Shown one piece after another: positions 41,042 to 53,975 of a DNA stretch of 54,102 nt (the first letter of the stretch is position 1; each line of letters begins with the position of its first letter). The position numbers and the translations under genes were made by a program. The stretch is from Ktedonobacterales bacterium. GTDB taxonomy: Bacteria; Chloroflexota; Ktedonobacteria; Ktedonobacterales; JACDGC01. The stretch spans positions 1 to 54,102 of the forward strand of contig JACDGC010000002.1 of NCBI GenBank assembly GCA_013815535.1, in the 5' to 3' direction. The notes beneath the pieces were generated by a model that saw only the letters and a list, made by a program, of their open reading frames with translations, was not told the DNA's origin and ran no database searches.

Positions 41042-41082
41042 CCAGTTTTTGTGAGGTTGATTCAACCTCACAAAAAGCAAGC
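41042..41082. repeat. 41-bp inverted repeat, left copy (31-bp perfect palindrome T5-GTGAGGTTGA-T-TCAACCTCAC-A5 plus asymmetric arms)
   Basis: CCAGTTTTTGTGAGGTTGATTCAACCTCACAAAAAGCAAGC. The reverse complement of 46274-46314 matches 40/41. Confidence 0.75.
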
Positions 41083-46273: not shown

Positions 46274-46314
46274 GCTTGCTTTTTGTGAGGTTGATTCAAC
46301 CTCACAAAAACTGG
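46274..46314. repeat. 41-bp inverted repeat, right copy
   Basis: GCTTGCTTTTTGTGAGGTTGATTCAACCTCACAAAAACTGG. Confidence 0.75.
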
Positions 46315-46825
46315 GGGGTAATTGGCTCTGTGGCAGGGATAAGAGGCCATAATAGTCATGCCTAGCAATGGTATTCGTAGGCAATACCCGGCGTGATTTT
46401 GCTCTTGAAGCATGCACGCACTTGGTGGTACAATTCAGGCGTTCATTTTTTCTGGTCTGCACCTATCCAGGTTGGTGTTGCTGCCTTTGGCGCAGGTATC
46501 CAACGCAGCGTGAAGTTCCTTTGCTGACCTTGTCGCAGGTCCTTCACCCAGGGTGTTTGTGATAGCTCCCATGTTCTCTGCTGCATGTGCGCATTCAACA
46601 TGGCCTATCTTCCGCTCGGATGTTGCTGTCTCTGCTGCATGTGCGCAAACAGCACCTATGAGCTTTCCCGGCTGGTTCACCCTCGGTGTGAGGATCGTCT
46701 GTTGAACGTTTTCCATGAAGAAGGAGGAAGGTTCCCATCTCGCACATCTGTCACGCAGCCTAGCGAGTTTTCGCGTCATCGCTCCATCACTCTGTTTCCT
46801 GGGAAAGGAGTATCCTTCCGCACCT

Positions 46826-47062
46826 ATGCGCTTCGTACCGGTTTTGTTTTTCCGCATACCGGCAGTGCTGATCTCGATGATTGTGGCGCTGATGATCATT
46901 CCCCTCCTCGTCTTTGGCCTGTTTCTGGGGATTGGTATCAGCTTTTTCCAGGCACTCTTCGCGGCATCACCCCTGGCTGGCACGATTGCTATCCTCGGTC
47001 TGTTGCTTTTGACGGGTGTTGGGATCACTTCCGTTGTTCGAGTAGTTCGCGCACACGCCTGA
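46826..47062 (+). CDS. small membrane protein (78 aa, 2-3 TM)
   Basis: MRFVPVLFFRIPAVLISMIVALMIIPLLVFGLFLGIGISFF... The Shine-Dalgarno is rather distant (15 nt). Confidence 0.4.
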   Translation: MRFVPVLFFRIPAVLISMIVALMIIPLLVFGLFLGIGISFFQALFAASPLAGTIAILGLLLLTGVGITSVVRVVRAHA

Positions 47063-47278
47063 TTCAAGCTCATTTCCTTGTTATGTTCCTGCGGGTTCCT
47101 AACGAGGTATGTCTCCTATTGCCTTTTTTCTCCTCATGTACCTGTGGCAGCCACCTTTCCTCCTGTGCTGCTGCTTCCCCCCCTTCATTCCTGTTGATGT
47201 GATGCACATCTGAGCCATGTTGCTCTGCCATCAGGGTTTGCTTGAGCCGTGGCCGCGGCTCGCTGGTGATAGCCGTTA

Positions 47279-47309
47279 CAGCCGAACTTCCTCCGGGGGT
47301 TCGGCTTTT
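47279..47309 (+). terminator. intrinsic terminator
   Basis: AGCCGAAC-(11 nt)-GTTCGGCT followed by TTTT. Confidence 0.6.
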
Positions 47310-47381
47310 TCGTTGTCTGTCGGCAGCGAGGCGCGGCTGCGCCATATTTCGCCCGGTATGGGCATTGTAAGGAGGCCAGTT

Positions 47382-47756
47382 ATGGCCATGCGCACTCCTC
47401 CCCCGTTTCCTCCCACTCCGAACGAGTTGCAGCTATTGGATTGGCTGCGGGAGACAGAACGACGTCAGAGCATTCCTCCGGGGAGCCTGGTTCCTGCTCT
47501 GCTCGTGACGTTGCAAACCATCAGTTCTGGTCGAGGGAATAAAAATTTGCTTGCTCGGCTTGCCGAGCTGGGGACCATGGGATCACCGCAACGGCAGACC
47601 GGGCTGCGCGTCATGCAAATCGTGATTGCGCTAGCTGTCGTTGCGCTCGCATGCTGTATCTTCACCTACGGAGCTGGCGCACTGATTGTCATCGCCAATC
47701 ACCACGTGGCCACGCCAACCGTGCCCGTACCGTTGACGCCAACGGTGCCACGTTAG
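47382..47756 (+). CDS. hypothetical protein (124 aa) with C-terminal TM anchor
   Basis: TAAGGAGG lies 6 nt upstream of the ATG. MAMRTPPPF... ends with the hydrophobic VMQIVIALAVVALACCIFTYGAGALIVIA. Confidence 0.6.
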   Translation: MAMRTPPPFPPTPNELQLLDWLRETERRQSIPPGSLVPALLVTLQTISSGRGNKNLLARLAELGTMGSPQRQTGLRVMQIVIALAVVALACCIFTYGAGALIVIANHHVATPTVPVPLTPTVPR

Positions 47757-47765
47757 CTTGCGGTG

Positions 47766-47804
47766 ATGAGGCGGAGCTTTGTCTCCGCCTCATTTGCTTG
47801 TTTT
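47766..47804 (+). terminator. intrinsic terminator
   Basis: ATGAGGCGGAG-(6 nt)-CTCCGCCTCAT followed by TTGCTTGTTTT. Confidence 0.6.
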
Positions 47805-47828
47805 CCAACAATGAAGGAGTTCACTGCG

Positions 47829-48149
47829 ATGGCAATGCGCGTTTGGCACCGCCGACACTCGTTGTTTGGTCTAGTCCCACAAGCGATGGATCCGGCGCTG
47901 TTTACCTGCGTGGCAGAATTGGCAACTGTGGATCCTGAACAGGCGTTTCGCTGGTCACAACATGCGGATCATGCTTGGCAGACGCAGCAGAATCGCGTCA
48001 TTCAATCCTTTGCTGCACACCCACGCTCGACGAGTGTGGGTGACATCTTGCAACAATGCTTGACCGGCACCTGCCTGCTCGTGTGTGCTGAAGGGTTTAC
48101 CGAACTGCCCGGCTGGGTATTTCCTGACCCAACGTCATCTTCTTGGTAA
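47829..48149 (+). CDS. hypothetical protein (106 aa)
   Basis: GAAGGAG lies 9 nt upstream. Starts MAMRVWHRRH... No family recognised. Confidence 0.55.
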   Translation: MAMRVWHRRHSLFGLVPQAMDPALFTCVAELATVDPEQAFRWSQHADHAWQTQQNRVIQSFAAHPRSTSVGDILQQCLTGTCLLVCAEGFTELPGWVFPDPTSSSW

Positions 48150-48260
48150 CGTGAGCGGAAGCTCTTTGTGGGACTCGCCAAAGTTATTGGTGAGTCCCAT
48201 TGTTTTGGGTCCCTTCCTGTACGCACATCGTGCTTTCGCCCTGCAGCGCTCGCTCCCCTC

Positions 48261-48348
48261 TTCCTATCCGTGGCTGCTGCTGCCACGCTGATGAGCCACC
48301 TTGAAACGGTTTCAGGGTTGGCACGCCTGAGCACAGGCGAAATAGGAA
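48261..48348 (+). ncRNA. hammerhead-ribozyme-like motif A (type III topology, expanded stem II)
   Basis: UUCCUAUC|CGUGGC(UGCUGCU)GCCACG-CUGAUGA-G[43 nt]C-GAAA-UAGGAA. Stem III is 7 bp (48261-67 / 48342-48) and stem I is 6 bp (48269-74 / 48282-87). Cleavage triplet AUC, with the predicted cut after 48268. Confidence 0.6.
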
Positions 48349-48456
48349 TCGCGGCGGACTGATGTTTACGTCCGCTTGCTCATGCACACCTCGACCACGG
48401 TGCTGGTTGAGAAAGGTTGGCGCGATCATGCTGTCTGTTTCCTGGTTACACGACAT

Positions 48457-48765
48457 GGCTGGGAGGCCACTGCCCCCAGTGAAAGGAGAATGGCCATGGC
48501 TTACGAGAAAATCTTGGGCGATATCATCGGCTTAGTGATATTGACGGGACGTTACCCTGCGTCCCCAAGTGAGAGGGAGTGGTACCTGTACAGCGCATTC
48601 GTCCGAAGGTTATTTGATAACTGGAAAAGCAATGGGGGGCTACCGCCACCTACTGATGAGGAATGTGAAGCCGCGCTCGCTGTTCGAGAGCGATTAATGG
48701 AAAGTATCTCCTCCGTTATTCAAGTCCCAGTAGCGTAGTTTGTCAATGGCGGTGGCCTCCCAGCC
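48457..48765 (+). repeat. 18-bp inverted repeat pair bracketing the 80-aa cistron (long-range RNA clamp candidate)
   Basis: GGCTGGGAGGCCACTGCC (48457-48474) pairs with GGCGGTGGCCTCCCAGCC (48748-48765): 17 Watson-Crick pairs plus 1 U-G on the + strand transcript. Confidence 0.6.
48496..48738 (+). CDS. hypothetical protein (80 aa)
   Basis: GAAAGGAGAA Shine-Dalgarno. ATG 48496 (or 48490). Ends ...QVPVA with the shared 3' sequence GTAGCGTAGTTTGT. Confidence 0.55.
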   Translation: MAYEKILGDIIGLVILTGRYPASPSEREWYLYSAFVRRLFDNWKSNGGLPPPTDEECEAALAVRERLMESISSVIQVPVA

Positions 48766-48936
48766 CTGTTGTGTTCCCCGCGCGGGCTGCCATCAGTATT
48801 TCCCCCGTGTTCATCGTCCCCCAGAATCCACCACCCCTTCACGCTGCCCGGCTGTAAATAGCAGCCATGCGGCATTGTGCTGTCGTTTGTGGGAAGGCGC
48901 GGTCCTCCCCATTTACCACCACCATTCCACGCCGCG

Positions 48937-49312
48937 ATCGGAGAGGCGGGCCACCGCCGACCCATCGAAAGGAGAACTCAATGCTGAAAGACACTGCGAA
49001 TTACGAGAAAGTTCCCCAAATTCTGGTGGCGGCTTTGGTCGTCATGAGGAGGGTCAAACGAATATGGGCGGATACGATGCCGCCTGAAATGGCCGCCGAA
49101 GCGATGCGGCGGTTTTCTGGGGATGATCTCCTGGCGCTTGCTCTGTGCGAGCTCGAAAAGATAGGTGCCCTTGATAATCCCACCTCTGACCAGGTGTGGA
49201 TGGCAAACCGTTGGCTCGACGTGTTGGTAGAGTGGTCGTTTGCTGAGGCTCGTCAATGTGGTGAGCCGATCGTAGCGTAGTTTGTTTATCGGCGGTGGTC
49301 CGCCTCTCCGAT
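48937..49312 (+). repeat. 24-bp inverted repeat pair bracketing the 99-aa cistron (long-range RNA clamp candidate)
   Basis: ATCGGAGAGGCGGGCCACCGCCGA (48937-48960) pairs with TCGGCGGTGGTCCGCCTCTCCGAT (49289-49312): 23 Watson-Crick pairs plus 1 G-U on the + strand transcript. Confidence 0.65.
48981..49280 (+). CDS. hypothetical protein (99 aa)
   Basis: GAAAGGAGAA Shine-Dalgarno 6 nt upstream. Ends ...EPIVA with the shared GTAGCGTAGTTTGT. Confidence 0.55.
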   Translation: MLKDTANYEKVPQILVAALVVMRRVKRIWADTMPPEMAAEAMRRFSGDDLLALALCELEKIGALDNPTSDQVWMANRWLDVLVEWSFAEARQCGEPIVA

Positions 49313-49324
49313 TGCCGCATAGCA

Positions 49325-49396
49325 CATCCATCCACGGCTGTTGCTGCCGTGCTGATGAGTCCCGCCGGACCCGCCTGAGCACAGGCGAAATGGATG
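49325..49396 (+). ncRNA. hammerhead-ribozyme-like motif B (type III topology, expanded stem II)
   Basis: CAUCCAUC|CACGGC(UGUUGCU)GCCGUG-CUGAUGA-G[26 nt]C-GAAA-UGGAUG. Stem III is 7 bp (49325-31 / 49390-96) and stem I is 6 bp (49333-38 / 49346-51). The predicted cut is after 49332. Confidence 0.6.
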
Positions 49397-49444
49397 GCAG
49401 AATCCCTGGCATGCTGGGTGACTCGCCCAGTCGTTGCCGCCATG

Positions 49445-49478
49445 AAAACCCGCACGCATCCCCATGCGTGCGGGTTTT
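49445..49478 (+). terminator. strong terminator-like hairpin immediately upstream of the csrA-like RBS
   Basis: AAAACCCGCACGCAT-CCCC-ATGCGTGCGGGTTTT. It ends 10 nt before GGAGG and 19 nt before ATG 49498. Confidence 0.6.
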
Positions 49479-49497
49479 GGCGTGTCATGGAGGAACC

Positions 49498-49839
49498 ATG
49501 ATCATCGTGCGACGGCCCGGCCAGGCCGTCTTCCTCGGCGACTACATGCTGGAACTCACCAGTACTGGTGGTCGCTTCGCGCGCTGGACCCTCACCGTCC
49601 CTCCGGAGATTCCCGTGCGCAAAGGGGACATGTTGCTTGCCCCCTGTCGGACCCGCAGCGTGCTGTTCTTTGGTCTCGATCCAGGCGATGCGGTCTGGAT
49701 CGACGACCGCATTGCGGTCGAACTCCGCCACTGTTCATCCCAGCACGCCACGCTCAGCGTGACGGCCCCCCGGCAAATCCTGGTGCTGCGCCAGGAACTG
49801 CTCACCTCCGCCACACCCTACCAGTACGCTCGCCGCTGA
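49498..49839 (+). CDS. CsrA-like protein with an internal tandem duplication of the CsrA fold (113 aa)
   Basis: Repeat 1 is MIIVRRPGQAVFLGDYMLELTSTGGRFARWTLTVPPEIPVRKGDML. Repeat 2 is VLFFGLDPGDAVWIDDRIAVELRHCSSQHATLSVTAPRQILVLRQELL. Both align to the CsrA pattern MLILTRRVGE.l.IGD.i.v.vl.v.g..VrlGi.AP..v.v.R.E. Confidence 0.65.
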   Translation: MIIVRRPGQAVFLGDYMLELTSTGGRFARWTLTVPPEIPVRKGDMLLAPCRTRSVLFFGLDPGDAVWIDDRIAVELRHCSSQHATLSVTAPRQILVLRQELLTSATPYQYARR

Positions 49840-49851
49840 GCGCACGCCAGA

Positions 49852-49889
49852 GCATGACCAGCGCGCCCAAACACCCGCGCTGGTCATGC
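49852..49889 (+). terminator. 13-bp stem-loop after the csrA-like gene (no U tract)
   Basis: GCATGACCAGCGC-(12 nt)-GCGCTGGTCATGC. Confidence 0.35.
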
Positions 49890-50112
49890 CATCTGCCACC
49901 CCCGACGGTTCTTTTGCTTTTCGTCAAGCACTTCCTCTCTTTTGTTCTTCCTCTTCATGTGCTTCTGTTATTCCCCCTGGCTCTTCTCCCCATCTGCCAC
50001 GCTCCTGGCTTTTCCTCACACGGACCCCCCTGTGGGTCGTTAGCGAGCAGACGCTGACGTTCCACAGGGGTGCCTGTCAAGGCGTCCCTATCTCCCTTTA
50101 AGGAGGGCACCG

Positions 50113-50337
50113 ATGATGCCCCCGATTCCACCGCCTGAGGAAACCCCTGGCGAGGCTGAGCTGTTGGCCTTGCTGCGCGTACTTGACGCGCAGGGTGGTG
50201 CCATGCCGGGTGACCATGCCCGGTATACCGCTGATCGTTTGCCCCTGATCATGGCAAACCTGCCGGTTGGCCTGAGTTGGCCGGCAGTCCTTGATTGGCT
50301 CTTGACCCGTTTCCAAACGGGCCAAGGTCTTCCCTAG
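50113..50337 (+). CDS. hypothetical protein (74 aa)
   Basis: TAAGGAGGG lies 7 nt upstream of ATGATG. No family recognised. Confidence 0.5.
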   Translation: MMPPIPPPEETPGEAELLALLRVLDAQGGAMPGDHARYTADRLPLIMANLPVGLSWPAVLDWLLTRFQTGQGLP

Positions 50338-50450
50338 TACGGTCGGGGCAGAGGCAACTCTGTCCCGCTGCGCGTGTTCTCTTCACCGGACCCTCGCATC
50401 GTTCCCTCGGCATACCCCCCTAAAACAGCGCGTAATTGAAGGAGAAGCTG

Positions 50451-50726
50451 ATGACCTCTGTTCGTGTGTTGATTGCTGCCAGCATGTTCGAGGTGGCCCT
50501 GTTTTGGGCCTACGGGTTGGGCGTTCCCCTCCCTGCCCTGGTTCTGGTGGTCATCCTCGGCCATCCGTTGACGATTCCCCTGATCGCGCATGTCCCGTTG
50601 TGGACCTCGGTGATCACCTTTGGGATGCTGATGGGAGGGGAGCGTCACGTTCCCTTTACCAACAGTTTGGTGGCACACCCTATCGGCTGTTTCTCGTCTT
50701 GGGGGCGGGTCTCTTTACGGGACTGA
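50451..50726 (+). CDS. small membrane protein; probably continues by a +1 frame change into 50650-50854
   Basis: GAAGGAG lies 7 nt upstream. There are 2-3 TM segments in this frame. The overlapping +1 frame (track ORF 50504..50854) encodes further clean TM helices (LFLVLGAGLFTGLTCVCLTILWFALIVLADGAFIVVLLL) but has no start of its own. Confidence 0.5.
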   Translation: MTSVRVLIAASMFEVALFWAYGLGVPLPALVLVVILGHPLTIPLIAHVPLWTSVITFGMLMGGERHVPFTNSLVAHPIGCFSSWGRVSLRD

Positions 50727-50960
50727 CCTGTGTCTGCCTCACCATCCTGTGGTTCGCGTTGATTGTCCTGGCTGACGGTGCCTTTATCGTGGTGCTGTTG
50801 CTCAGGCTGCTTGGTGGTCAGGCGATGCGGTGGTGGCATCGTGTGGCGCGATAACGGTCGCTTGTCTGGTAGATGCGTCGGGGGAATGATGCGAGCGCCT
50901 GGTGGCGTTCGGTTCGGAGTGGGTAGGAAGCGATTTTGTCCACTCTGGGTAATGGAAGTT

Positions 50961-50991
50961 GGGCGACCACAAGATGGTCGCCCTTTGTGTT
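50961..50991 (+). terminator. intrinsic terminator
   Basis: GGGCGACCA-(5 nt)-TGGTCGCCC followed by TTTGTGTT. Confidence 0.55.
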
Positions 50992-51019
50992 GCCCTCGTA
51001 AGGGCAGGAGGATGTTGGG

Positions 51020-51289
51020 ATGTTGGTACTTCGTCGTAAGGCCGGTGAGGTCGTGGTCCTTAATGGCGTCATCAAGGTGTATGTGCTCGCTGTCGAGGGC
51101 GAGCGCGTCAAGTTAGGTTTCGATGCGCCACCGGATGTGGTCATCGTACGGCAAGAACTCCTCGACAATGATGGCACACCAGCGCAGAGCAAGGCAAACT
51201 TTTGTGTGCGTATCGTCGAGCATCTGCGGGGGTGGTTGGCTGCTTGGGGCAGTCGCCGTGGTGCTGTTCTGGTTGCGGTCAGCCGCTAA
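51020..51289 (+). CDS. csrA: CsrA-family RNA-binding protein paralog
   Basis: MLVLRRKAGEVVVLNGVIKVYVLAVEGERVKLGFDAPPDVVIVRQELL closely follows the CsrA consensus. AGGAGG lies 7 nt upstream, within a GCCCT-CGTA-AGGGC hairpin context. Confidence 0.75.
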   Translation: MLVLRRKAGEVVVLNGVIKVYVLAVEGERVKLGFDAPPDVVIVRQELLDNDGTPAQSKANFCVRIVEHLRGWLAAWGSRRGAVLVAVSR

Positions 51290-51372
51290 CGGGCATGCTC
51301 GGCGTGTGCGTTGGTTTCGTGGGAGCACTGGTGCCAGCACTGGCACCGGTGCTCCTGAAGGGAGCATCTCCC

Positions 51373-51840
51373 ATGGCGTTTTCACCACGAGTGGATGTCG
51401 CGGCGCTCAAAGCCGCGCACCCGCTCGAAGATATCGTCGGGCTAACCGTCAATCTCGTGCGGGATGGCAAAGCCTTGAAGGGTCTGTGCCCGTTCCATCA
51501 CGAGCGGACGCCCTCCTTTTTCGTCTTCCCCGACCCCATCACTGGGGGCCGCTGGCACTGCTTTGGTGCCAGTTGTGCCCGTGGCGGAGATGTCTTCACC
51601 TATTTACACCTCCGCGATGGTCTGAGCTTTCGTGAAGCCGTCGCGTATTTGCAACAATGTGACCCAGCTACCCCCCTGTATTCGCTAGTCGAGTTGAGCA
51701 GCAGACGCTCCAAAAATGCTGGTGAGAAAACGGCAGCACCTTGCGGGAAAGTGTTAGTCAAACTACGGCAGCAGTGGCCATGTTTTCCCCAAAGTGTTAC
51801 TCGAAGTGGTTGCCATTTGGTTGCTCATCTGGTACACTAG
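51373..51840 (+). CDS. CHC2 zinc-finger (DnaG/primase-type) protein, probably 3'-truncated by the IS21 insertion
   Basis: LKGLCPFHHERTPSFFVFP...WHCFGASCARGGDVFTYL is the CHC2 primase zinc finger. Only 155 aa, and the tail is read into the IS end. Confidence 0.7.
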   Translation: MAFSPRVDVAALKAAHPLEDIVGLTVNLVRDGKALKGLCPFHHERTPSFFVFPDPITGGRWHCFGASCARGGDVFTYLHLRDGLSFREAVAYLQQCDPATPLYSLVELSSRRSKNAGEKTAAPCGKVLVKLRQQWPCFPQSVTRSGCHLVAHLVH

Positions 51841-53975
51841 GAGGAATACCGATCCGGTCTTGGGAAAGGAAGGTTCCCGGCCATGATCACCGAAGAAGAG
51901 CGCGAACAGATCCGGCGCGCCTACTTTCTTGACCATCACAGTGTTCGCCAGATTGCCCGGGATCTCCATCGCAGCGGGCGCACGGTGGCCAATGCGCTGT
52001 TTCCCGCCCCCACGGTGCCCTCGGCTCCGCGTCGCCCCCGCTCTGCTCCCGTCTTTGGACCCTTCCAGGCACGGGTGGAAACGTTCTTGCTCCAGAATGA
52101 GCGCCTCCCGCGCAAACAACGCTTCACCGCCCGCAAGATCTTTGAGCTGCTGCGTGCCGAGGGCTACACCGGCTGCGAGTCCCTGATTCGCGCCTTCAAA
52201 GCCGCCTGGCAGCGGGAACGGCATGCCCCCGACACCTTTCTCCCCTTGCAATTCGAACCCGGTCAGGATGCCCAAGTCGATTGGGGAGAGGCCCAGGCGA
52301 CCATTAATGGCATCCCCCAGACGGTGCAGTTCTTTGTCATGCGGCTGTGCTACTCACGGCGCCTCTTTGTCATGGCCTTCCCCAGTCAGAAACAGGAAAG
52401 CTTCTTTTACGGGCATGTACTGGCCTTTGCCCATTTCGGCGGCGTCCCCACGCGCATCAGCTACGACAATCTGGCGACCGCCGTCAAGTTGGCCTTTGAC
52501 CACGGGCGGACGCGACACGAAAACCGCACGTTTGTCTCGTTTCGCAGCCATTACCTCTTCGACTCCCATTTCTGCACGCCTGGTGAGGGTCATGAGAAGG
52601 GCGGCGTCGAAAGTGCCGTGGGATATGCGCGCCGCAATTTCCTCGTCCCGCCGCCCGACGTCGCCTCCTTTGACGCACTCAACCTCCATCTGCTACAAGC
52701 GTGCTTGCGCGACGACCAGCGCAAGGTCGCCCGTACCCAACCAACCATCGGCGAAAACTGGGAAGAAGAACGCCCGCTGCTCATCCCCTTACCGCCCTTT
52801 GCCTACGATTGCTGTACCGTCACGACCGCACAACTCACGCCCTACAGCCAAGCCACCTTTGAGACCAACCGCTATTCCGTGCCCGTTCAGCGCGCTCGTC
52901 GGGACGTGACCGTCAAGGCCTACCCCTTCCATGTCGATCTCCTCGATCACACCACGCTGCTGGCGCGGCATCCGCGCTGTTACGACCGCGAGCAAGATAT
53001 TTTTGATCCGTTGCATTACCTGGCCTTGCTCGAACAGCGTCCGGGAGCGTTTGACTACGCGAAACCCATACAGGCTTGGCGCAAGGGCTGGCCCCCGTCC
53101 TACCACCTCATGCTGCGCAACTTGCAGGACAAGTGGCCGGGGGGGCGCGGGGTGCAGGAATTCGTGCGCATCCTGCGCCTTCACCAGGAATATCCTGCCG
53201 CTCTCGTCCAGTCAGCCATCGAACAGGCCATTGCCTACGGATGTATCCATCTCGACGGCGTCTTGCATTGTCTCCACCAACTCATTGAGCCGTCGCCGCC
53301 TGAGCCGATGCTCCCCACCACCGATCCGTTGCCCTTGCGCGAAGTGGGTACGCAGCCCATTGACCTAGCCCGCTACGAATTGCTGCTCAAACGTCCTGGC
53401 TAAAGGAGATCGCCGTCATGGAGTCGCAAGAGTTACTCGAAAGCTACCTGCGCCAGCTGCATCTGCCCACGTTTTTGCAGAACTATCAGGCGTTTGCCCA
53501 GGATGCGGCACGCGGGAATATGTCCAATGAGCGGTTTCTCCTGGCCTTGTGTGAAGCGGAAGTGCTGCAACGCGATGCCAAGCGTATCGCGGCGGCGGTT
53601 GCCTACGCGCGCGTGCCCATCTTCAAAGACTTGGCGAGTTTTGATTTTAGCCTGATTCAGGGTGTCACGAAAGCGCGCGTCCTCGAACTCATGCAGGGCG
53701 GCTACATGACCCAGGCAGAAACCGTCATCTTGATTGGGATTCCGGGGCTCGGTAAATCCCATATCGCCACGGTCCTCGCGCTGGCCGCGTGCCAGCAAGG
53801 GAAACGAGTGCGCTTTTGGGGTACGGCGAAACTGGTCGAAGCGTTGGAAACCGCCCGCAAGGATCTGCGCTTGTCGAAATTCCTCGCCAGTCTCGCCAAG
53901 CATGATCTCATCGTGCTCGACGAGTTTGGCTTTCTCCCTTTTTCTCCCGATGGCTCCCAACTGTTGTTTCAAGTC
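51742..53975 (+). mobile_element. IS21-family insertion sequence, 3'-truncated (left boundary approximate)
   Basis: An istA-istB gene pair. The candidate left terminus TGTTAGTCAAACTACGG near 51742 is inferred, not proven. IstB similarity stops after ...LLFQV at 53975. Confidence 0.7.
51883..53403 (+). CDS. istA: IS21-family transposase IstA
   Basis: N-terminal HTH (EEEREQIRRAYFLDHHSVRQIARDL), a DDE core (QVDWGE ... SYDNLATAV ... GHEKGGVESAV) and a conserved C-terminal domain. Confidence 0.9.
   Translation: MITEEEREQIRRAYFLDHHSVRQIARDLHRSGRTVANALFPAPTVPSAPRRPRSAPVFGPFQARVETFLLQNERLPRKQRFTARKIFELLRAEGYTGCESLIRAFKAAWQRERHAPDTFLPLQFEPGQDAQVDWGEAQATINGIPQTVQFFVMRLCYSRRLFVMAFPSQKQESFFYGHVLAFAHFGGVPTRISYDNLATAVKLAFDHGRTRHENRTFVSFRSHYLFDSHFCTPGEGHEKGGVESAVGYARRNFLVPPPDVASFDALNLHLLQACLRDDQRKVARTQPTIGENWEEERPLLIPLPPFAYDCCTVTTAQLTPYSQATFETNRYSVPVQRARRDVTVKAYPFHVDLLDHTTLLARHPRCYDREQDIFDPLHYLALLEQRPGAFDYAKPIQAWRKGWPPSYHLMLRNLQDKWPGGRGVQEFVRILRLHQEYPAALVQSAIEQAIAYGCIHLDGVLHCLHQLIEPSPPEPMLPTTDPLPLREVGTQPIDLARYELLLKRPG

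Follow-up and report, generated by a model that had tools for sequence, protein, structure and literature searches.

The window analyzed here is a stretch of 54,102 nt from the forward strand of contig JACDGC010000002.1 (assembly GCA_013815535.1, Ktedonobacterales bacterium), and all coordinates refer to it. The region of interest looks like the early part of a Mu-like transposable prophage. Cellular transporters lie upstream of about 45.4 kb, and genes from about 47.2 kb onward are all on the + strand, in the order two hypothetical genes, a terminator-like hairpin, a hammerhead-like motif (motif A), two small ORFs, a second hammerhead-like motif (motif B), another terminator-like hairpin, a gene for a CsrA-like protein, small ORFs, a second CsrA gene, and genes for a DnaG zinc-ribbon protein, a Mu-type transposase, and a MuB/DnaC-like ATPase (Table 1). 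Motifs A and B are on the same strand as the genes and lie 1064 nt apart, bracketing the two small ORFs, as is typical of clustered prophage hammerheads. No recognizable sigma-70 promoter was found, and together with the terminator-like hairpin upstream of motif A this leaves the ribozyme-carrying transcript ambiguous. A search of IMG/VR for relatives of the Mu-type transposase returned none.

Table 1. Coordinates of features at the locus, numbered along the window
Feature	Position	Strand	Remarks
Terminator-like hairpin upstream of motif A	48168-48200		
Motif A, sister copy	48261-48348	+	Same CUGAUGA core directly 3′ of stem I
Motif A, predicted cleavage	48268/48269	+	After C48268
Motif A, inserted hairpin	48295-48322	+	
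Motif A, stem II	48325-48338	+	
Small ORF 1	48496-48738	+	80 aa; no family match (Pfam, PHROG); called as a gene on an identical Logan contig
Small ORF 2	48981-49280	+	99 aa; no family match (Pfam, PHROG); stop 44 nt upstream of motif B
Motif B, stem III 5′ strand CAUCCAU	49325-49331	+	U49331 = U16.1; partner 49390-49396
Motif B, cleavage-site nucleotide C17	49332	+	Predicted scission 49332/49333; position by the hammerhead numbering rule
Motif B, stem I CACGGC/GCCGUG with heptaloop 1 UGUUGCU	49333-49351	+	6 bp
Motif B, catalytic core box CUGAUGA (C3-A9)	49352-49358	+	Exact match, directly 3′ of GCCGUG
Motif B, inserted hairpin GUCC-CGCC-GGAC and 2-nt linker CC	49359-49372	+	Fourth helix, between A9 and G10.1
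Motif B, stem II GCCUG/CAGGC with loop 2 AGCA	49373-49386	+	5 bp; closing pair G10.1-C11.1
Motif B, core GAA (G12-A14) and stem III 3′ strand AUGGAUG	49387-49396	+	GAA at 49387-49389; A49390 = A15.1
Intrinsic-terminator-like hairpin	49445-49478	+	Perfect 15-bp palindrome flanked by an A-run and a U-run; 48 nt past the end of motif B
CsrA-like gene	49498-49839	+	113 aa; Pfam CsrA 31.2 bits against a cut-off of 27; PHROG "CsrA-like regulator"
Second CsrA gene	51020-51289	+	Compact and typical; better-scoring, 62 bits
Mu-type transposase	51883-53403	+	rve and Mu-transpos_C_2

The terminator-like hairpin and the csrA-like gene that an initial annotation had reported downstream of motif B are both present. 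The product of this gene has an N-terminal extension of ~55 aa and a weak Pfam score. One relative of it, at 96% identity, was found on the 4.5-kb ENA contig L228. Positions 1541-3193 of L228 match the window only over 48253-49897 (1.65 kb, 93% identity), starting 8 nt before motif A and ending shortly after the CsrA-like gene, and L228 is otherwise unrelated. Because the match is confined to this interval, the ribozyme-bracketed module appears to be a mosaic block with its left edge at a ribozyme. The terminator-like hairpin downstream of motif B is 100% conserved in L228. A Logan contig is also 100% identical to the window, over 46281-52146.

Each small ORF is enclosed by a long inverted repeat, of 27 nt with 89% complementarity around ORF 1 (48448-48474/48748-48774) and of 30 nt with 90% complementarity around ORF 2 (48931-48960/49289-49318). 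One arm of each repeat lies just 5′ of the ribosome-binding site and the other just past the stop codon; both stems are present when the MFE fold is computed for the 1064-nt fragment, and L228 conserves them at 100%. The two units encode unrelated proteins but have in common a ribosome-binding-site box, CCCAnnGAAAGGAGAA, and a stop box, GTAGCGTAGTTTGT; the idea that ORF 1 and ORF 2 are paralogs was rejected (BLASTP E = 14). The enclosing stems look like RNase III substrates or end-protecting clamps.

A perfect 30-nt repeat, itself a palindrome (TTTTGTGAGGTTGA-TTC-AACCTCACAAAA), occurs at 41047-41076 and 46281-46310. Runs of T and A border it, as in a bidirectional terminator, and its two copies bracket a 5.2-kb block of ion-transport genes. 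The identical Logan contig begins exactly at the second copy, and the repeat may mark a prophage or island boundary.

Architecture of motif B and its sister copy

Motif B occupies 72 bases of the + strand (49325-49396) and reads CAUCCAU-C-CACGGC-UGUUGCU-GCCGUG-CUGAUGA-GUCCCGCCGGAC-CC-GCCUGAGCACAGGC-GAA-AUGGAUG. The parts of a type III hammerhead are all there in the correct order, aside from a helix inserted at A9/G10.1. Stem III, of 7 bp, is open, stems I and II are closed by loops, and A49390 (A15.1) pairs with U49331 (U16.1). The initial annotation had described a type III layout at this interval, which can be read from the sequence itself as described, and had placed the cut after 49332, in agreement with the predicted assignment of C17 to C49332. 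Folded by itself, each copy has a four-helix junction as its MFE structure (z = -3.7 for motif B and -4.3 for motif A), and none of 200 shuffles folded as well as copy A or copy B.

The 18-mer GCCTGAGCACAGGCGAAA has exactly two occurrences in the window, against 0.01 expected. In a pairwise alignment of the two copies, the core boxes and the second hairpin (stem II) are identical, and the six compensatory changes of the initial annotation are recovered as exactly six double, pair-preserving substitutions from A to B. Two of these are in stem I (G-C to A-U and U-A to C-G) and four in stem III (U-A to C-G, U-A to A-U, C-G to U-A, and U-A to C-G). The first, inserted hairpin differs between the copies in sequence as well as in length. 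The distance from CUGAUGA to the conserved hairpin is 30 nt in A and 14 nt in B, a difference of 16 nt, which, as first noted, is no multiple of three. The accompanying proposal that these features reflect conserved RNA structure rather than protein coding is supported by covariation among relatives, given below, and by indels of 5, 1, and 1 nt that separate L228 from the window between ORF 2 and the CsrA-like gene and mark this stretch as non-coding.

In L228, motif B is identical at 73 of 73 positions. In its copy of motif A, two more stem I pairs have undergone compensatory change (U-A to C-G and G-C to A-U), one pair of the inserted hairpin has gone from A-U to G-U, and outer stem III contains two mismatches. 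A GGA in the stem III 3′ strand of A (AUAGGAA) and of B (AUGGAUG) recalls the GGA motifs bound by CsrA; because copy A of L228 has lost it, the likeness may mean nothing.

Relatives and covariation

Relatives of the two motifs were collected from viral (IMG/VR) and metagenome contigs, giving 44 further distinct sequences and 46 with A and B included. Pattern scans of IMG/VR yielded 22 loci with the same architecture among the matches listed. The pattern used for metagenomes fixed only GCU, CUGAUGAG, G.C..AGCA..G.C, and GAAA and imposed no complementarity; in the 38 stretches that it retrieved, stem I was paired at 6/6 positions in all 38 and stem II at 5/5 positions in 37. As the search patterns were derived from the window copies, the conservation of CUGAUGAG, AGCA, and CGAAA is imposed, and as CUGAUGA was fixed in the patterns, its invariance among the relatives is uninformative. 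Pairing in stems I and II served as a filter for the viral matches but not for the metagenome matches, and stem III was never used for selection. A pattern scan of 185,579 species-representative genomes produced 45 matches, all of them noise lacking stem I and none a member of the family, and a Megablast search of the region against phage GenBank records gave no match.

The compensatory changes seen between the two copies are kept up in the further homologs. In an alignment of 42 sequences, 91.4% of the cells are paired, compared with 31-49% when partners are slid by 1-3 columns, and double compensatory changes occur at 15 of the 18 pairs. The covariation score of this alignment, 0.708, compares with 0.17 in shuffles and no more than 0.18 with slid partners. 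Pairing reaches 100% in stem I, with double changes at all six pairs, and 99.5% in stem II, with double changes at three of five pairs; the inner four pairs of stem III are likewise 100% paired, with four to five pair types each. The A15.1-U16.1 position is U-A in all 42 sequences. RNAalifold by itself predicts the same three helices.

At gathering thresholds, Rfam 15 matched neither the window nor any of 10 related loci. In E-value scans, Hammerhead_3 (RF00008) was the only Rfam ribozyme family matched, with 13.4 bits for motif B and 18.0 bits for motif A, and neither copy reached the gathering score of 48.5 bits. Relatives with four helices scored 20-33 bits against the same model, and three-helix relatives from the clade scored 32-43 bits, aligning over the full model with E-values down to 1e-6. 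The low scores of A and B are attributable to the extra hairpin between CUGAUGA and stem II and to the 7-nt loop 1. That the Rfam model at its curated threshold misses the clade matters for homology searches. A covariance model built from 40 relatives from elsewhere, with A and B left out, identified both copies in the 54 kb window, B with 67.3 bits (E = 2e-18) and A with 55.4 bits (E = 1e-14), and no further copy on either strand at E ≤ 1. A regular-expression scan and two covariance-model scans of the 54 kb with filters off likewise revealed no hammerhead besides A and B.

These results bear on the idea that the motifs are a chance resemblance or a recent, functionless duplication whose compensatory changes are coincidental. 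The core boxes are short and only two copies exist in the window, as such an origin would have it, but the family has more than 40 distinct members with covarying helices, all six stem differences between A and B keep pairing, and motif B is unsubstituted in L228, where the surrounding block is only 93% identical. Chance is effectively refuted by the family covariation, the score of motif B with a model from which it was left out, and its identity in L228, and the idea as a whole is extremely improbable.

The additional helix

Two hairpins separate CUGAUGA from the GAA of the core, one variable and one conserved, and three assignments of stem II were compared. The initial annotation, writing the core as CUGAUGA - G...C - GAAA, had a single G...C pair close a stem II that branches into two hairpins. 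This part was not upheld, since the second closing pair can form in only 26 of the 46 sequences, against 46 of 46 for the hairpin's own pair. A second assignment, with the variable hairpin as stem II and the AGCA hairpin as the insertion, was rejected on the evidence of three-helix relatives, which keep an AGCA-type hairpin as their sole stem II. These relatives came from a scan in which loop 1 served as the anchor and no constraint was placed between CUGAUGAG and CGAAA; it returned 31 distinct three-helix and 13 distinct four-helix sequences. The three-helix forms have the same 6-bp stem I and a UGNNGCU heptaloop, with a single stem II closed by an (N)AGCA loop. In an alignment of marine phage contigs, three- and four-helix forms occupy the same intergenic site, between the end of the same upstream gene and the start of the same downstream gene.

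Homology to ordinary three-helix relatives decides the third assignment: judged by sequence comparison, the conserved GCCUG-AGCA-CAGGC hairpin is the true stem II, closed by G10.1-C11.1, and the variable hairpin with its linker of 2-4 nt is an insertion between A9 and G10.1 that is predicted to turn the three-helix junction into a four-helix one. All 32 distinct inserts in the relatives fold as a hairpin starting at the G after A9, compared with 46% of shuffles (mean z = -2.65), and neither the sequence nor the loop of this hairpin is conserved among them. At the junction of motifs A and B, C11.1 (49386 in B) adjoins G12, and 14 nt in B and 30 nt in A intervene between A9 and G10.1 (49373 in B). 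The junction is not that of a three-helix hammerhead, and the motif was therefore filed as a hammerhead variant and not as a canonical member.

In CChMVd(+) and in the hammerheads of Penelope elements, catalysis tolerates one additional nucleotide between A9 and G10.1. A literature search for a natural hammerhead with a four-way junction or a helix at 9/10.1 found none, and an earlier description may still exist. The RNAMotif descriptors of Perreault 2011 accept a 2-bp stem II with as many as 100 nt in loop II (PMC3088659), and with such permissive descriptors four-helix sequences could have been gathered earlier without being recognized as such.

Predicted cleavage site, loops, and catalytic core

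The cleavage triplet of motif B is AUC, which agrees with the NUH rule, nucleotide 17 not being G. Among the relatives the triplet is GUC in 42, GUU in one, and GUA in one, and AUC occurs only in A and B. AUC is essentially absent from natural hammerheads and is cleaved efficiently after transcription and more poorly during transcription (PMC1636495). Loop 1, UGUUGCU (U-G-Y-U-G-C-U), conforms in sequence to UNmYN, and loop 2, AGCA, conforms in sequence to RNnA; loops of these types mediate loop-loop docking in most natural hammerheads (Dufour 2009, PMC2632901).

Catalysis by A and B, like self-cleavage of the four-helix group as a whole, is proposed on grounds of homology. The insertion breaks the continuity of A9 and G10.1 beside a metal-binding region of the core, and it could slow or abolish catalysis. 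The motifs might accordingly be hammerhead-derived RNAs that no longer cleave, their fold being kept as a binding site for a protein or RNase or as a structured 3′-UTR element before the terminator. Such a loss of activity would suit a junction with four helices instead of three, the Rfam scores of 13-18 bits, and the unusual AUC triplet, and the conservation of the inserted hairpin as a structure suggests selection for something. Against it stands the integrity of the catalytic nucleotides in A, B, and L228, all of which are intact, including G5, G8, G12, and C17, which are needed only for chemistry. The docking motifs of loops 1 and 2 are also retained, and their sole known role is to make catalysis faster. 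The exchange of three- and four-helix forms at the same locus in sister phages argues for equivalent function, and the hairpin, its sequence and loop being unconserved, is unlike a specific binding site. A non-cleaving derivative is on balance unlikely.

Hammerheads in related contigs

Relatives on other contigs also occur in pairs or beside early phage genes. On one contig (L212), a single ORF sits between two hammerheads spaced 380 nt apart, and in three others (L007-L009) two hammerheads 600 nt apart flank one ORF. A further four-helix hammerhead (L226) has a divergent cI-like HTH gene on one side and early genes for an HNH nuclease and a Rad52-like protein on the other, and another (L005) lies amid genes for an ATPase, an HNH protein, and a primase-helicase.

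The second hammerhead of L212, at 1166-1224 on the - strand, has CCGAUGA in place of the expected CUGAUGA (U4 to C) and shares the flanks of the neighboring four-helix copy. In both L212 copies, ACAGGAG, the 3′ strand of stem III, shares bases with the Shine-Dalgarno sequence of the ORF that follows, such that cleavage followed by strand release could unmask the ribosome-binding site. In marine phage contigs (L003-L012, L143, L147, and related contigs), a GGGGC-UUCG-GCCCC hairpin lies directly 5′ of the stem III 5′ strand. Cleavage in these phages would leave a stable hairpin at the 3′ end of the upstream mRNA and the compact ribozyme body at the start of the downstream mRNA, about 10-20 nt before the ribosome-binding site.

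Proposed function

Taken together, motif B is probably a self-cleaving type III hammerhead from a clade carried by phages, situated in the + strand early transcript of a Mu-like prophage. The RNA would fold while it is being transcribed and cut itself between C49332 and C49333, giving an upstream product that ends in a 2′,3′-cyclic phosphate and a downstream product that starts with a 5′-OH and comprises the ribozyme body followed by 48 nt and the terminator hairpin. With motif A cut after C48268, the two ribozymes would release a 1064-nt RNA that carries the two small ORFs. This RNA would be uncoupled from the upstream gene, the terminator, and the downstream csrA-like cistron, and the pieces may then differ in stability or translation. 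Detaching pieces of RNA, with effects on their stability or translation, is the role that has been suggested for bacterial hammerheads generally (PMC6765202). An outward-facing backbone between 9 and 10.1 would explain how the ribozyme accommodates the inserted hairpin. The four stem III differences between A and B make their strands cross-pair badly, which would lessen misfolding between the two copies on one transcript.

A same-orientation pair of type III hammerheads flanking a discrete segment could also act as a cleavage-ligation pair that circularizes or splices the 1064-nt fragment, as in viroid-like RNAs or retrozymes, a possibility that has been raised for clustered prophage hammerheads (Perreault 2011, PMC3088659). 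The long inverted repeats, which join distant parts of the fragment, would fit such a process. The stem III strands that would have to meet, however, are poorly matched: the 5′ strand of B (CAUCCAU) and the 3′ strand of A (AUAGGAA) form three Watson-Crick pairs and one wobble pair out of seven, which disfavors a chimeric, ligation-competent A/B hammerhead. Perreault et al., moreover, sought circular or spliced products and found none (PMC3088659). Ligation of the fragment is very unlikely, and the self-cleaving hammerhead that detaches it remains the preferred reading.

Relation to known hammerheads and significance

Hammerheads are known to cluster in prophages, where they flank single genes or short blocks, and arrays of them cleave in vitro and in E. 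coli (Perreault 2011, PMC3088659). The strongest gene association of bacterial ribozymes is with Mu-like phages (PMC10085705). Motif B shares its catalytic core, its open stem III, and predicted cleavage 3′ of H17 with the type III hammerheads of phages and prophages (RF00008; PMC3088659). As in the prophage hammerheads of Perreault et al., the copies lie within about 1 kb of each other, flank genes, and are located in an early region near Mu-like genes. Unlike canonical type III hammerheads, the four-helix form has a hairpin of 12-28 nt and a linker of 2-4 nt at A9/G10.1, and motif B has AUC in place of GUC and scores far below the Rfam cut-off.

Three-helix members of the clade (for example IMG/VR L143, L147, L170, L119, and L120) resemble motif B in their 6-bp stem I, UGNNGCU heptaloop, 4-5 bp stem II with an (N)AGCA loop, and short stem III, and lack the inserted hairpin. 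CChMVd(+) and Penelope hammerheads carry an insertion at the same backbone position, although theirs is one nucleotide and here it is a whole helix. At the level of sequence, the loops resemble the tertiary motif of Dufour 2009 (PMC2632901), with a heptaloop that has a 5′ U, G2, and a penultimate pyrimidine, and an R-N2-A loop 2. Non-circularly permuted hammerheads (the SGC and CSG types; PMC10085705) likewise have non-canonical connectivity and were found by comparative genomics; these types reorder the core blocks and form pseudoknots, whereas motif B keeps the classical type III order and adds a helix.

Prophage hammerheads as such are familiar. What is new is the four-helix architecture, its frequency in metagenomes, and the natural pairing of three- and four-helix forms, although earlier surveys may contain such sequences. 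A broader reading is offered tentatively, as possible rather than probable: the four-helix form may be an unrecognized hammerhead subclass, widespread in phage metagenomes and, at orthologous sites, interchangeable with the three-helix form. Earlier searches would score its members only as having a "two-base-pair stem II with a long loop". A possible role of this additional helix is to adjust the rate of folding or cleavage, for example as a built-in brake or as a platform for a factor, and in this prophage it would act in concert with the long-range stems of 27-30 bp that enclose each ORF, in an mRNA-processing cassette combining ribozyme and double-strand-RNase action.

That a hammerhead core accommodates a whole helix at 9/10.1 would offer ribozyme engineering a possible new attachment point for aptamers, and the orthologous three- and four-helix pairs are ready-made constructs for probing the effect of the extra helix. 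For the prophage hammerheads known since 2011, this locus is a compact test case, with two ribozymes, two stem-enclosed ORFs, a terminator, and a CsrA-like regulator. Hammerheads in prophages are already well known, and to these the present clade adds a four-helix variant that is common in phage metagenomes.
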